The notes below the pieces were generated by a model. That model was not told where the DNA came from and made no database searches. It worked only from the letters and a program-made list of their open reading frames with translations. This document shows, in pieces, positions 2 through 47,439 of a stretch of 64,000 nucleotides of DNA (position 1 is its first letter; each line of letters starts with the position of its first letter). The DNA comes from Escherichia phage ZCEC14. A program made the translations under genes and the position numbers. The stretch is from sequence record OP168898.1. The stretch is one strand, 5' to 3'.

Positions 2-1096
<1,095 letters not shown>

Positions 1097-1098
1097 TT

Positions 1099-1128
1099 GT
1101 TTACTTCCTCCAAGGGTTTTGATATTAT
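1099..1128 (+). promoter_or_regulatory. T4-type early promoter (GTTTAC, 18-bp spacer, TATTAT)
   Basis: GTTTAC 1099-1104, -10 1123-1128; followed by SD GGAGG and ATG 1156. Confidence 0.6.
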
Positions 1129-1155
1129 ACATTCATCAACTACTTGGAGGAAATT

Positions 1156-1296
1156 ATGACCCGTATCAATTTAACACTTGTTTCTGAATTGACCGACCAA
1201 CATCTTATGGCTGAGTATCGTGAATTACCACGCGTATTTGGTGCAGTCCGTGAACATGTTCAAAACGGTTTACGCTTAAGTATTAATATGGTATAA
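1156..1296 (+). pseudogene. truncated duplicate of denV 5' end (46 codons)
   Basis: [35 protein letters not shown] then divergent tail and stop; same N-terminus as full denV at 2306. Confidence 0.6.
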
Positions 1297-1325
1297 TTAC
1301 TCTATCAAAACAAACAAGGAAACAC

Positions 1326-1904
1326 ATGAAAACATATCAAGAATTTATTGCCGAAGCTTCTGTAGTAAAGGCCAAAGGTATTAATAAAGATGAGTGGACC
1401 TACCGATCGGGAAACGGCTTTGACCCTAAAACAGCTCCTATTGAACGGTACTTAGCTACAAAGGCTTCCGACTTTAAAGCTTTCGCTTGGGAAGGACTTC
1501 GCTGGCGTACCGATCTAAATATTGAAGTTGATGGGCTTAAATTTGGCCATATTCAGGATGTTGTTGCTAGTAACTTAGACGCAGCTTTTGTTAAAGCCGA
1601 CGGTGACCTTCGTCGCTGGAATTTAAAACTGTTCTCTAAACAGAAAGGCCCGGTGTTTGTGCCTAAAGCTGGTAAATGGGTTATTGATAACAAATTAGCT
1701 AAGGCTGTCAACTACGCTGGTCTTGAATTTGCCAAGCATAAATCATCATGGAAAGGTCTTGATGCAATGGCTTTCCGTAAAGAATTTGCTGATGTTATGG
1801 CTAAAGGCGGCTTTAAGGCAGAACTAGATACCTCTAAAGGTACGTTTAAAGACGCTAATGTTCAGTACGCTTACGCCGTTGCTAATGCAGCCCGTAATTC
1901 CTAA
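1326..1904 (+). CDS. ipIII: internal protein III
   Basis: 192 aa; MKTYQEFIAEASVVKAKGINKDEWTYRSGNGFDPK... matches T4 IPIII. Confidence 0.9.
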   Translation: MKTYQEFIAEASVVKAKGINKDEWTYRSGNGFDPKTAPIERYLATKASDFKAFAWEGLRWRTDLNIEVDGLKFGHIQDVVASNLDAAFVKADGDLRRWNLKLFSKQKGPVFVPKAGKWVIDNKLAKAVNYAGLEFAKHKSSWKGLDAMAFRKEFADVMAKGGFKAELDTSKGTFKDANVQYAYAVANAARNS

Positions 1905-1945
1905 TAAAGCTAATACTCAGACCTATTTACATTTAAAGGAAACAT

Positions 1946-2248
1946 ATGAAAACATATCAAGAATTTATTACTGAAGCGCGAGTGAGTGCAGGTAAATTAG
2001 AAGCCGCTATAAATAAAAAGGCCCATTCATTTCATGATTTGTCCGATAAAGACCGTAAGAAACTTGTAAGCCTTTATATTGACAAAGAGCGTATTCTCGC
2101 TCTTCCTGGCGCTAATGAAGGTAAACAGGCCAAGCCTTTGAATGCTGTCGAAAAGAAAATTGATAACTTTGCTTCTAAATTCGGTATGTCTATGGATGAC
2201 CTTCAGCAAGCGGCTATCGAAGCAGCTAAAGTAATTAAAGGTAAATAA
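1946..2248 (+). CDS. ipII: internal protein II
   Basis: 100 aa; MKTYQEFITEA N-terminus; size and position of T4 IPII. Confidence 0.8.
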   Translation: MKTYQEFITEARVSAGKLEAAINKKAHSFHDLSDKDRKKLVSLYIDKERILALPGANEGKQAKPLNAVEKKIDNFASKFGMSMDDLQQAAIEAAKVIKGK

Positions 2249-44322: not shown

Positions 44323-45750
44323 GTGGTAGAAATTATTCTTTCTCATCTCATATTTGATCAAGCTTATTTTTCAAAAGTTTGGCCATATATGGATTCAGAA
44401 TATTTTGAAAGTGGTCCAGCTAAAAATACATTCAAATTAATTAAATCTCATGTCAATGAGTATCATAGCGTTCCATCTATTAATGCGTTAAATGTTGCAT
44501 TAGAAAATAGTTCATTTACTGAAACAGAATATTCTGGTGTAAAAACACTTATTTCAAAACTAGCTGATTCTCCGGAAGACCACAGTTGGTTAATAAAAGA
44601 AACAGAAAAATATGTTCAGCAAAGGGCGATGTTTAATGCTACGTCTAAAATAATCGAAATTCAAACTAATGCTGAGCTTCCTCCGGAAAAACGAAATAAG
44701 AAAATGCCGGATGTTGGTGCTATTCCTGACATCATGCGTCAAGCATTATCAATTTCATTTGATAGTTACGTTGGTCATGATTGGATGGATGACTACGAAG
44801 CACGTTGGCTATCTTATATGAATAAAGCGCGTAAGGTTCCATTTAAACTCAAAATTCTAAACAAAATTACTAAAGGCGGAGCTGAAACTGGAACACTGAA
44901 TGTTTTAATGGCTGGTGTTAACGTTGGTAAGTCATTAGGATTGTGTTCATTAGCAGCAGATTATTTGCAGCTCGGACATAATGTTCTTTACATTTCCATG
45001 GAAATGGCAGAAGAAGTCTGTGCTAAACGTATTGACGCTAATATGCTTGATGTTTCTCTTGATGACATTGATGATGGGCATATTTCTTACGCTGAGTATA
45101 AAGGAAAAATGGAAAAATGGCGTGAGAAATCTACTCTCGGTCGTTTAATCGTTAAACAGTATCCTACTGGCGGAGCAGATGCTAATACATTTCGATCACT
45201 TTTAAACGAATTGAAGCTCAAAAAGAATTTTGTTCCAACAATCATTATTGTCGACTATCTAGGTATTTGTAAATCTTGCCGCATCAGAGTTTATTCAGAA
45301 AATAGTTACACAACTGTTAAAGCTATTGCAGAGGAATTGCGTGCTTTGGCTGTTGAAACCGAAACTGTTCTTTGGACTGCAGCACAGGTTGGTAAACAAG
45401 CTTGGGACTCTTCCGATGTTAACATGAGCGATATTGCAGAATCTGCCGGTCTTCCAGCAACAGCCGATTTTATGCTTGCAGTCATTGAAACCGAGGAGTT
45501 AGCAGCTGCTGAACAACAACTCATTAAGCAAATCAAATCACGATATGGCGATAAGAACAAATGGAATAAGTTTTTGATGGGTGTTCAAAAAGGAAATCAG
45601 AAATGGGTAGAAATTGAACAAGATTCTACTCCAACTGAAGTGAGTGAAGTAGCAGGTTCACAACAGATTCAGGCTGAGCAGAATCGCTATCAAAGAAATG
45701 AATCCACTCGAGCTCAGTTAGATGCTTTGGCAAATGAATTAAAATTTTAG
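44323..45750 (+). CDS. 41: replicative DNA helicase gp41 (DnaB-like)
   Basis: 475 aa; Walker A GVNVGKS; GTG start. Confidence 0.95.
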   Translation: MVEIILSHLIFDQAYFSKVWPYMDSEYFESGPAKNTFKLIKSHVNEYHSVPSINALNVALENSSFTETEYSGVKTLISKLADSPEDHSWLIKETEKYVQQRAMFNATSKIIEIQTNAELPPEKRNKKMPDVGAIPDIMRQALSISFDSYVGHDWMDDYEARWLSYMNKARKVPFKLKILNKITKGGAETGTLNVLMAGVNVGKSLGLCSLAADYLQLGHNVLYISMEMAEEVCAKRIDANMLDVSLDDIDDGHISYAEYKGKMEKWREKSTLGRLIVKQYPTGGADANTFRSLLNELKLKKNFVPTIIIVDYLGICKSCRIRVYSENSYTTVKAIAEELRALAVETETVLWTAAQVGKQAWDSSDVNMSDIAESAGLPATADFMLAVIETEELAAAEQQLIKQIKSRYGDKNKWNKFLMGVQKGNQKWVEIEQDSTPTEVSEVAGSQQIQAEQNRYQRNESTRAQLDALANELKF

Positions 45751-45792
45751 TTTACAAGCTGACAAGACTATGGTATAGTAGTCTTGTTGGTT
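45750..45792 (+). promoter_or_regulatory. early promoter within hairpin (PeSL-like)
   Basis: GTTTAC 45750-45755, -10 TATAGT 45774-45779; arms ACAAGACT / AGTCTTGT. Confidence 0.6.
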
Positions 45793-45808: not shown

Positions 45809-45991
45809 ATGGAATTGGTAAAGGTAGTTTTTATGGGGTGGTTTAAGAACGAAAGCATGTTTACTAAAGAAATCACAATGATGAAAGATGACGTTCAATG
45901 GGCTACTACTCAATATGCTGAAGTTAATAAAGCATTAGTTAAAGCTTTCATTGATGACAAGAAAGTATGTGAAGTAGATTGCCGAGGATAA
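45809..45991 (+). CDS. dmd: Dmd, antitoxin against host RnlA/LsoA
   Basis: 60 aa; MELVKVVFMGWFKNESMFTKEITMMKDDVQW; adjacent to gene 41. Confidence 0.7.
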   Translation: MELVKVVFMGWFKNESMFTKEITMMKDDVQWATTQYAEVNKALVKAFIDDKKVCEVDCRG

Positions 45992-45992
45992 T

Positions 45993-46235
45993 ATGCATAT
46001 TGTTTTATTTAAACCTACTCCGTATAACGTCAGGAAAAATACACAATTCAAAGCACTTATTGCAGATACGTGGGAATTGGTGCTAGATATTCCAGCAGAA
46101 GAAAGTCCTCCATTTGGTCGAGTGGAATTTATTAAGTTTGCTGTGCGCCCTACGAAGCGACAGATTCGCCAATGCAAAAGATACTTTCGTAAAATCGTCA
46201 AATTAGAGAAACAGTTATTGATGCTAGTAAAATAG
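45993..46235 (+). CDS. hypothetical small basic protein (position of T4 61.4)
   Basis: 80 aa; immediately downstream of dmd. Confidence 0.5.
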   Translation: MHIVLFKPTPYNVRKNTQFKALIADTWELVLDIPAEESPPFGRVEFIKFAVRPTKRQIRQCKRYFRKIVKLEKQLLMLVK

Positions 46236-46237
46236 TA

Positions 46238-46280
46238 GTTTACAAGCTGATAGAGTTGTGTTATAGTAATTCTATCAGCT
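46238..46280 (+). promoter_or_regulatory. early promoter within hairpin (PeSL-like)
   Basis: GTTTAC 46238-46243, -10 TATAGT 46262-46267; arms AGCTGATAGA / TCTATCAGCT. Confidence 0.6.
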
Positions 46281-46610: not shown

Positions 46611-46904
46611 ATGAAAAAATTTATCTTTGCTACAATTTTTGCTTTAGCTTCTTGCGCTGCTCAGCCTGCTATGGCAGGTTATGATAAAGATTTGTGCGAA
46701 TGGTCTATGACTGCGGATCAGACTGAGGTTGAAACCCAAATTGAAGCAGATATTATGAATATCGTTGAGCGTGATCGTCCTGAAATGAAAGATGAAGTAC
46801 AAAAACAACTTAAGTCTGGCGGTGTAATGCAGTATAATTATGTTCTGTATTGCGATAAAAACTTTAATAATAAAAATATCATCGCTGAAGTGGTAGGTGA
46901 ATAA
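46611..46904 (+). CDS. sp: periplasmic spackle protein Sp
   Basis: 97 aa; signal peptide MKKFIFATIFALASCAAQPAMA; size and position of T4 sp. Confidence 0.6.
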   Translation: MKKFIFATIFALASCAAQPAMAGYDKDLCEWSMTADQTEVETQIEADIMNIVERDRPEMKDEVQKQLKSGGVMQYNYVLYCDKNFNNKNIIAEVVGE

Positions 46905-46916
46905 TTAGAGGTTGAT

Positions 46917-47273
46917 ATGTATAGTTCTGAATTTTCATATTTAAAAATGGAAAAAATTTCATACGATTTTATAGATGAAAAGGTTTATTACAGTTTCCAT
47001 GAACCACGTTTTAATAGTGAGGTTGGGTTTATTGTAGTAAAAGACAATTTCATTTTAAAAATATATTCGGCATTAAAGGATTTTCACTACGAAAATATTA
47101 ACCTAAAATTTAATAAAGAAAACGTTCGTAATTGCGCAGTAACAATTACAGGAAATAAAGGTACATGTGTTATGCTATCTGATGAAATTAATGATTTGCT
47201 AAATGATGCAGAAAATATTACTGCACCATCTATTGATGACCAAATTTTTAACGCTTTTATGAATAGAGGTTAA
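46917..47273 (+). CDS. hypothetical protein
   Basis: 118 aa. Confidence 0.45.
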   Translation: MYSSEFSYLKMEKISYDFIDEKVYYSFHEPRFNSEVGFIVVKDNFILKIYSALKDFHYENINLKFNKENVRNCAVTITGNKGTCVMLSDEINDLLNDAENITAPSIDDQIFNAFMNRG

Positions 47274-47274
47274 T

Positions 47275-47439
47275 ATGAAAACATATAAAGAATTTATCAA
47301 AGAAGATATGGTTGCTGGAGATTCAGGTGGTAATCCTGAAAATATCTCTACTGGAACAACATCAGGTGCTGCAGTAAATAAAGGTCCTGAACAGATTCCT
47401 AAAAAGAAAAAAGAGGAATCTAAAGAAAAAGAAGAGTAA
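47275..47439 (+). CDS. small protein with capsid-targeting-sequence-like N-terminus (not in ORF track)
   Basis: 54 aa; MKTYKEFIKE then Gly/Ser-rich and Lys/Glu-rich tail. Confidence 0.4.
   Translation: MKTYKEFIKEDMVAGDSGGNPENISTGTTSGAAVNKGPEQIPKKKKEESKEKEE

Follow-up and report, generated by a model that had tools for sequence, protein, structure and literature searches.

What is encoded by the 54 codons that directly precede the primase gene of Escherichia phage ZCEC14, and why do they open like an internal protein of the phage head? The open reading frame (ORF) lies in a stretch of 64,000 nucleotides from sequence record OP168898.1, called the window below, and an earlier sequence-only reading had proposed that it encodes a small peptide packaged into the capsid and injected with the DNA. 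The ORF is gene 61.1, and its product (full translation MKTYKEFIKEDMVAGDSGGNPENISTGTTSGAAVNKGPEQIPKKKKEESKEKEE) combines, as judged by alignment, two head-protein signals, namely a capsid-targeting sequence (CTS) of the internal-protein type ending in I-K-E and a copy of the N-fist found in gp23, the major capsid protein. This product is probably a peptide associated with the head, not a protein of replication. This reading is built on observed sequence relationships, conservation, motif placement and promoter elements, from which the mechanism set out below is inferred.

The ORF had been described as unannotated. It does fall below the 60-amino-acid cutoff of the ORF track, but it already carries the name 61.1 in public records and is listed as ‘hypothetical protein’ in T4, T2, RB14, PP01 and others (T4 counterpart T4p034, UniProt P39228). 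Many sequenced isolates are 98% identical across this stretch. A full-length match to the family profile (phrog_1823, E 1.5e-32, residues 1-54) and the position directly upstream of primase place the protein in the gp61.1 family; a second profile, phrog_2086, matches residues 8-53 (E 5e-15). Pfam and NCBIfam scans of the 54-residue protein gave zero matches. Public labels are inconsistent, records and UniRef entries calling the same protein hypothetical, ‘major capsid (domain-containing) protein’ or ‘head morphogenesis protein’; the last two labels are explained by the gp23-like block that 61.1 carries. The Gly/Ser-rich middle segment (also containing Thr) and the Lys/Glu tail described earlier are readily seen in the translation.

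The leader MKTYKEFIKE, compared with known examples, varies no more than the targeting sequences of genuine internal proteins do among themselves. Its likeness to the ipIII/ipII start had been put at 8 of 10 positions including the I-x-E site, a figure that holds for all three ip ORFs of the window. The ipIII-like ORF at 1326 starts MKTYQEFIAE, from which the 61.1 leader differs at positions 5 and 9 only, the ipII-like ORF at 1946 starts MKTYQEFITE, and the ORF at 815 encodes a 93-residue internal protein. When all six frames of the 64 kb were searched with the pattern M[KR]T[YF].[EQ][FY][ILV].E, only these three ORFs and 61.1 matched; since about 1e-4 matches are expected in the window (a rough composition-based estimate), the 8/10 likeness is not due to chance. 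As had also been noted, the gene lies outside the canonical ip locus, 45 kb away in the interval from sp to gene 61. Phage VR5 has four annotated internal proteins, which start MKTYQEFITE, MKTYKEFIAE, MKTYQEFIAE and MKTYQEFITE. With VR5 Ip3 (MKTYKEFIAE) the 61.1 leader shares 9 of 10 residues, so that Lys5 is found in a genuine CTS, and the sole difference falls at position 9, which varies among internal proteins. According to Mullaney & Black 1996, as summarised in PMC9026906, CTS residues 4 and 7 serve mainly for targeting, and residues 8 and 10 for processing. All four functional positions are kept in 61.1 (Y4, F7, I8 and E10), and T4 61.1 carries Phe rather than Tyr at position 4. Conservation in other T-even genomes, which had been proposed as a check, is borne out by the form MKT[YF]KEF[IV]xE, kept in Tequatro-, Dhaka-, Jiaoda- and Kanagawavirus. 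At the nucleotide level, the first 30 nucleotides of 61.1 are identical to the ip gene starts at 24-26 of 30 positions, and the DNA upstream is unrelated. Recent recombination with the ip genes was considered and rejected, because shared amino acids explain the 30-nucleotide identity and the flanks differ; codon preference presumably contributes as well.

Targeting sequences that follow the local 61.1 leader from lineage to lineage were also sought, and usable comparators came from VR5 only. In the whole genome of Phi1, the strict CTS pattern occurs only in 61.1 and a loose pattern also in UvsW.1; this lineage is uninformative because 61.1 alone fits strictly. The start of Phi1 UvsW.1 (78 amino acids, record position 104234), MISFKRFLVE/A, is much like the Phi1 61.1 leader MIGFKQFVEE, a resemblance that may be due to chance.

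Beyond the leader, 61.1 aligns as a copy of part of gp23, from the cleavage site of the gp21 prohead protease onward. A single-sequence phmmer search of all PDB chains retrieved only T4 gp23, with 61.1 residues 4-39 on gp23 59-94 (FGSFLTE/AEIGGDHGYNATNIAAGQTSGAVTQIGPA, E 0.034), and the 61.1 family profile brought gp23 to E 2.3e-7, the best unrelated chain standing at 0.45. Profile-profile comparison by hhalign with the gp23 N-termini of five genera gave 98.6% probability and E 1.1e-15 over gp23 54-102; gp24, gp22, gp21, gp67 and gp68, used as controls, showed no match to 61.1. A hidden Markov model (HMM) constructed from long-form 61.1 proteins only (described below) and run against six frames of 442 kb of T4-like DNA (6740 ORF pieces) recovered all 61.1 and all five gp23 (the latter at E 3e-14 to 4.5e-11) without any further hit below E = 1. 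The alignment is gapless and sets I8-K9-E10/D11 on gp23 L63-T64-E65/A66. After the cut site, 14-20 of 37 positions are identical, including the conserved G-D-x-G, N-I-x-x-G-x-T-S-G-A and G-P, and lysines 43-46 coincide with gp23 R100-R101.

In gp23 itself, gp21 removes a 65-residue delta piece at E65/A66 (PMC9546572). As long as the cleaved prohead is unexpanded, the N-fist (residues 66 to ~90) lies inside it and is disordered; once expansion has taken place, it touches four neighbouring subunits and helps to form the Soc binding site (PMC9958956, PMC9546572). The 54 residues of 61.1 cover gp23 54-102 only and include no HK97-fold body, so that the protein is, on these alignments, a partial paralogue or mimic of gp23 and not a capsid protein. 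Upstream of the cut, gp23 conserves A-F-G-x-F-[LI]-x-E (F59, F62, L/I63, E65), with its aromatics in register with Tyr4 and Phe7 of the CTS. Since the aromatics and the [LI]-x-E share one register, one signal (aromatic-x-x-Phe-[Ile/Leu]-x-Glu) seems to recur in variant form in the CTS, the leader of 61.1 and the junction of gp23.

The predicted gp21 site I-K-E (residues 8-10) is aligned with L-T-E65 of gp23 and lies in a segment predicted to be disordered (predicted local distance difference test score, pLDDT, <50). Short N-terminal propeptides ending in [LI]-x-E are typical of T4 head components, such as gp24 (MAKINELLRE/S), gp22 (MLKEQLIAE/A), gp21 (...LLIE) and gp67 (MEGLIE/A), and the cleavage motifs of Alt are ITE-6 and LTE-619 (PMC5694885). 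Cleavage after E10 would leave a mature peptide DMVAGD...KEE of 44 residues and 4574 Da, with an isoelectric point (pI) of 5.0 and 7 K+R versus 9 D+E, which is probably unstructured on its own. The Asp that follows the predicted cut is probably tolerated, given that a gp23 head-length mutation A66D exists (PMC9546572). Diagnostic of the two states would be the uncleaved tryptic peptide EDMVAGDSGGNPENISTGTTSGAAVNK and, after the E10 cut, the semi-tryptic peptide DMVAGDSGGNPENISTGTTSGA[A/V]VNK.

Gene 61.1 is a real small gene under strong purifying selection. A tblastn search located it in 1410 records of phages whose hosts range from Escherichia to Klebsiella, Acinetobacter, Aeromonas and Vibrio, as against 1439 records with a gp23 at least 60% identical to that of T4, the two sets being compared by their totals and not cross-checked record by record. 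By this comparison, 61.1 would be close to universal in phages with such a gp23. Between four Tevenvirinae genera, synonymous sites are saturated (~20-27 of ~29 differ), the nonsynonymous distance (dN) over codons 1-42 is 0.09-0.22, and its ratio to the synonymous distance (dN/dS) is 0.03-0.12 over these codons and 0.09-0.15 over the whole gene. In 19 of 19 lineages gene 61 has 61.1 upstream of it, either adjacent or close by. Gene 41 is followed directly by 61.1 and then by 61 in Aeromonas phage 31, Vibrio phage nt-1 and Morganella phage MP1, and in Aeromonas phage 25 a single small ORF is inserted between 61.1 and 61. The adjacency in phages 31, nt-1 and MP1 marks the dmd-tifA-sp-adfA genes of the T-evens as an insertion beside an older 61.1-61 pair. 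Aeromonas phages 31 and 25 also have a GC-rich hairpin (aagccctcttttgagggctt; tggcctaacggcca) after gene 41 and before 61.1, a sign that in these two phages 61.1-61 may be transcribed as a unit of its own.

The family comes in two architectures. Short forms have 52-62 residues, with leaders of 10-23 residues (MKT[YF]KEF[IV]xE in the four genera named above, MTLLEKYKQSLSE in Marfavirus, MKTFLECSGK...QVDE in the two Aeromonas phages 31 and 25, MIGFKQFVEENKLKE in Krischvirus). The long forms, 148-166 residues in length, are those of Mosig-, Teguna-, Roskilde-, Karam-, Gelderland-, Pseudoteven-, Lazarus-, Mylas- and Gualtarvirus; in these, which make up most of the other lineages, a conserved and mostly helical N-domain of ~105 residues precedes the module formed by cleavage site and fist. 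The T-even form is, to judge from these alignments, a truncated version with a CTS-like leader in place of the N-domain. Homologues that lack MKTY.EFI.E, which had been named as grounds for refutation, do exist outside the T-even group, but all keep [LIV]-x-E at the junction: the motif stands directly before the (D/E/S)MVAGD block in 34 of 34 aligned members and in 19 of 19 lineages. A second conserved motif of the long forms, [IL]-[TN]-E (residues 93-95, ending in E95), is present in 36 of 37 sequences, 13 residues upstream of the junction site; gp21 cleavage at both of them, if it occurs, would set free a short linker peptide. Most other lineages have a purely basic tail (KKRKR...).

The long-form N-domain has no Pfam match and is absent from the 64-kb window. 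Comparison by hhalign with gp67, gp68, gp21, gp22, gp23 and gp24 was negative, and the idea that the long form is the whole delta domain of a capsid paralogue was dropped for this reason. An AlphaFold2 model of the long form is poor (pLDDT 58, with the C-module below 50), and Foldseek searches of it against PDB and BFVD returned sequence relatives or noise only. Because a word-indexed homologue search with the short protein yielded 10 close relatives only, the long form was used as query instead. The N-domain family comprises 1703 clusters at 50% identity (E 1e-3 or better). Its distant homologues lie in T4-like replication modules of the order pol, uvsX, gp41 ... nrdB, and no cultured relatives of these were found. 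On uncultured T4-like contigs, this N-domain occurs in proteins of 265-490 amino acids that also have a related motif (EEPTNVIGDAGENDNI) and long tails rich in Lys and Arg; their genes adjoin a DUF7207 gene in the pol-uvsX-gp41 ... nrdB module.

The promoter elements near the gene differ across the family. A consensus scan found no TATAAATA late promoter on the + strand between 8280 and 49288 of the window, and 61.1 of this phage is probably transcribed from two sigma-70-type sites. Elsewhere, a perfect TATAAATA stands at -21, -29 and -35 from the 61.1 start in VR5, Potts1 and TG1, respectively, and a 7/8 version, NATAAATA, at -20 to -27 in Mineola, Cronus, Meroveus and CC31. Collectively, ATAAATA occurs between -45 and -9 of 61.1 in seven of 19 lineages, where genome-wide rates predict 0.04-0.05; in these seven the element is followed by AGGAG, and it is missing in Tequatrovirus, where anti-toxin genes abut 61.1. 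Given this excess over expectation, a good part of the family appears to transcribe 61.1 from a late promoter of its own, as is the case for head genes.

Taken together, these features make it quite conceivable, if still tentative, that the prohead is where the 61.1 product docks and that a cut after E10 reduces it to a peptide of 44 residues. Its entry into the core of the assembling prohead would rely on the same contacts by which the junction region of gp23 and the propeptides of internal proteins are held. There, gp21 would cut the protein into a 10-residue propeptide and a mildly acidic peptide of 4.6 kDa, which might stay with the DNA and be injected, stick to the shell at N-fist contact sites or leave with other core fragments through the 14-17 Å capsomer openings. 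It is tempting to go further and to see in 61.1 an overlooked near-core gene that supplies a free docking-and-cleavage junction with N-fist, the CTS being a mimic of gp23 56-65 and the fist peptide structural or regulatory in head maturation; this extension is rather unlikely. If it were true, the CTS would imitate the shell protein's own hold on the scaffolding core or the protease, and the fist peptide could fill empty N-fist sockets at the vertex or portal, time the action of gp21 or tune head length. Control of head length maps to gp23 residues 66, 94 and 97.

Several observations weigh against a role in the head. The gene sits in a replication cluster (helicase 41 and primase 61), beside the anti-toxin genes dmd, tifA and adfA, and has no late promoter nearby in this window or in T4. 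The T4 transcript is classed as early, and the protein is undetected in the T4 time-resolved proteome; in the same data set, ipII, ipIII and gene 40 are likewise ‘early’ by transcript. The predicted mature peptide is acidic (pI 5.0), and the internal proteins of T4 are basic. The MKTY leader is limited to part of the Tevenvirinae, its place being taken elsewhere by other leaders or by a large N-domain unrelated to head proteins. One T4 virion mass-spectrometry study does not mention 61.1, and no unassigned fist-like density is reported for T4 capsid maps at 3.3-3.4 Å, the only extra density mentioned being helical and under gp24 (PMC9546572). Finally, 61.1/gp23 pairs from five phages show no clear excess of within-phage identity; co-evolution is not demonstrable here because the gp23 fist is too conserved. 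The capsid-targeting claim of the sequence-only reading is thus only partly sustained: a leader in the CTS range, its conservation in four genera, the gp23 homology and the late-promoter elements speak for it, while the differing leaders of distant relatives and the acidic peptide do not.

An early-made 61.1 product could instead act outside the head, as a decoy or pseudo-substrate for a recogniser of the gp23 junction region, serving as an anti-defence or assembly-timing peptide; the target might be gp21 that is active too soon, a factor of folding or assembly, or a sensor of host defence that responds to the major capsid protein. Such a role is unlikely, though not far-fetched. The early T4 transcript fits it, as do the lack of a late promoter in the window and in T4 and the specificity of the likeness to gp23 54-102. 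The gene also lies at the edge of a proposed ‘anti-TA island’ (dmd, tifA, adfA), other genes of which have been called attractive anti-toxin candidates (PMC9391042), and the N-terminal quarter of gp23 engages host EF-Tu and triggers the Lit protease (PMC3014915). Yet 61.1 occurs almost universally, even in phages that do not have the island (31, nt-1, MP1 and 25), a late-promoter element precedes it in seven of the 19 lineages, and neither [LIV]-x-E nor a CTS-like leader would be required unless gp21 were the target. As a rule, accessory anti-defence genes are patchy in distribution, a pattern that 61.1 does not follow. Against a decoy in the Lit/Gol system in particular, the copied segment ends about where the Gol core, which probably lies downstream of it, would begin. 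A function with the neighbouring replication proteins has also to be weighed, in which 61.1 would act with the 41 helicase and the 61 primase (e.g. through its tail on DNA or by translational coupling) and the gp23-like block would be an old capture. The invariant position beside gene 61 across genera, the 61.1 stop codon 2 nucleotides before the primase ATG, the distant N-domain homologues in replication modules and the basic tail of most lineages all agree with this. Synteny with gene 61 is weak evidence, however, because gene order is conserved in general in T4-like genomes. Conservation of the N-fist residues, of the [LIV]-x-E junction and of the internal-protein-type leader would be left unexplained, as would the late-promoter elements, and in this phage the tail is not basic. 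A replication accessory is therefore quite improbable.

Little more can be said for a classical internal protein, that is, a processed peptide kept in many copies in the DNA-filled head, injected and active in the next host like IPI, IPII, IPIII and Alt. CTS and processing motif are the same as in internal proteins, but the peptide, with 44 residues, acidic and probably disordered, is within the size range said to escape through openings of 14-17 Å (PMC9546572). Moreover, the gene is not in the ip locus, it is nearly invariant when compared with the hypervariable ip genes, and its body copies a shell-contact element and not an effector; the likelihood of this explanation is low. As for a chance ORF or a decaying, functionless fragment of a gene 23 duplication, shortness and resemblance to part of another gene are what one would expect of either. 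The dN/dS of 0.03-0.15, the 1410 records, the fixed position by gene 61, the strong Shine-Dalgarno sequence and the translational packing point the other way. A functionless remnant is excluded by these data on selection and conservation, and the chance of either is practically nil.

Docking of 61.1 in the prohead thus remains the preferred reading, and the features on which it draws are compiled in the table with the neighbouring genes. The genes around 61.1 are tightly packed: the stop codon of the upstream 118-residue ORF (47271-47273) falls between the 61.1 Shine-Dalgarno sequence and the ATG, from which it is separated by 1 nucleotide. The gene order runs from helicase 41 through dmd, an ORF in the tifA/61.4 position, a goF-like ORF, spackle and the 118-residue ORF to 61.1 and primase 61, and the surrounding genes mark a T-even phage (Tequatrovirus).

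Table. Gene 61.1 of Escherichia phage ZCEC14, its predicted parts and its surroundings (positions in the window)
Feature	Positions	Strand	Basis or remark
Gene 61.1 coding sequence, 54 codons + TAA (47437-47439)	47275-47439	+	ATG at 47275, ORF list, profile match, annotated homologues
Shine-Dalgarno GAGG	47266-47269	+	Sequence reading; 5 nucleotides before the 61.1 ATG
Codons 1-10, MKTYKEFIKE, CTS-like propeptide	47275-47304	+	Matches to ip genes and VR5 Ip3; four-genus conservation
Codons 8-10, I-K-E, predicted gp21 prohead-protease site, cut after E10	47296-47304	+	Alignment with gp23 L63-T64-E65/A66
Codons 11-42, DMVAGDSGGNPENISTGTTSGAAVNKGPEQIP, homologue of the gp23* N-terminal N-fist region (gp23 66-97)	47305-47400	+	phmmer, profile, hhalign
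Codons 43-54, KKKKEESKEKEE, charged tail; first lysines on gp23 R100-R101	47401-47436	+	Alignments
Gene 61, DNA primase, 342 amino acids	47442-48470	+	ATG 2 nucleotides past the 61.1 stop
Sigma-70-like early-type promoter match, extended -10, upstream of dmd	45751-45779	+	Consensus scan
Second sigma-70-like promoter match, upstream of goF-like ORF	46239-46267	+	Consensus scan
Helicase 41	44323-45750		
dmd	45809-45991		
ORF in tifA/61.4 position	45993-46235		
goF-like ORF, 84 amino acids	46299-46553	+	phrog_2980, E 3e-20
Spackle	46611-46904		
ORF of 118 amino acids	46917-47273	+	RB32ORF033c-like, phrog_4122
Hydrophobic ORF of 66 amino acids	48467-48667	-	Overlaps primase stop
Comparator ip locus, three CTS-bearing ORFs (815-1096, 1326-1904, 1946-2248)	815-2248	+	Not part of 61.1

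Some of these neighbours deserve mention in their own right. The goF-like ORF stands between the tifA-position ORF and spackle, where T2 and teqhad have no gene. The 118-residue ORF occupies the position of adfA/61.2 in T4; its residues 23-118 match the C-terminal half of the 210-residue phrog_3781 (E 1.7e-6), and teqhad has a 208-residue ORF in addition to this one. The 66-residue ORF on the opposite strand is labelled ‘putative head morphogenesis protein’ in one T2 record via annotation transfer; labels in this record are unreliable, because it also names helicase 41 ‘major capsid protein’. In the ip locus, 1109-1284 is a truncated, diverged copy of the 5′ part of denV (126/173 nucleotides identical to 2261-2435), placed between the 93-residue internal-protein ORF (815-1096) and the ipIII-like gene, with full denV at 2306-2722; it looks like a recombination scar in a hypervariable locus.

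Selection of proteins for the T4 prohead core has been described as mysterious (PMC9958956), and the CTS serves as an engineering handle for packaging foreign proteins. In this context, a 54-residue protein that holds both a CTS and the capsid cleavage junction suggests two versions of one docking signal, and 61.1, small and non-essential-looking, would be a handy gene for testing this idea. A defined function would also correct the inconsistent database labels. Should the decoy explanation be the true one, 61.1 would be a conserved capsid-mimic counter-measure, of relevance to capsid-sensing defence systems. No literature linking 61.1 to the CTS was found, gp61.1 appearing only in gene tables, and a review of the core and quasicore (PMC2993671) does not mention it. 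Nor did a proteomic record come to light that places the protein in proheads or virions or excludes it from them. Gene 61.1 and the CTS are each known separately; their meeting in one near-universal gene situated apart from the head and ip clusters, as a CTS-type leader joined to a copy of the gp23 junction and N-fist, appears to be undescribed.

How, then, does 61.1 compare with known systems? The T4 internal proteins IPII and IPIII and the Ip family share with it the start M-K-T-Y-x-E-F-[ILV]-x-E at the very N-terminus, ending in the gp21 motif. They are encoded in ip loci (next to e/denV or 57B), outside which 61.1 lies, and are poorly conserved (PMC9026906), whereas the mature part of 61.1, 44 residues and acidic, is conserved. 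Internal proteins have Ala or Ser after the cut; 61.1 has Asp and, in this phage, only early-type promoters. Membership in the internal-protein family is not established, because locus and charge differ and packaging is only predicted. With gp23 ~54-102, the likeness extends to a gapless block, the gp21 site and basic residues at R100-R101, but 61.1 is without the HK97-fold body and the delta piece residues 1-53, and is a separate gene, 85 kb away in T4. The gp24 propeptide MAKINELLRE/S is as long as the 61.1 leader (10 residues) and resembles it in that positions 4, 7 and 8 are hydrophobic and positions 6 and 10 are Glu. More broadly, gp24, gp21, gp22, gp67 and Alt all have a short N-terminal leader ending in [LI]-x-E that gp21 removes; unlike 61.1, they are known parts of the head, and their genes lie in the cluster of late head genes. 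The genes dmd (61.5), tifA (61.4) and adfA (61.2) are, like 61.1, small and situated in the early-transcribed stretch between 41 and 61. They have no sequence relation to it and vary between phages, whereas 61.1 is nearly universal and older than the island. The long-form gp61.1 proteins (phrog_2086; RB43, RB69-type, CC31, S16-type, Acinetobacter and KVP40-type) and the distant phrog_18642 proteins have an orthologous C-module, likewise encoded upstream of primase, and 61.1 of ZCEC14 differs from them in lacking their conserved helical N-domain of ~105 residues.

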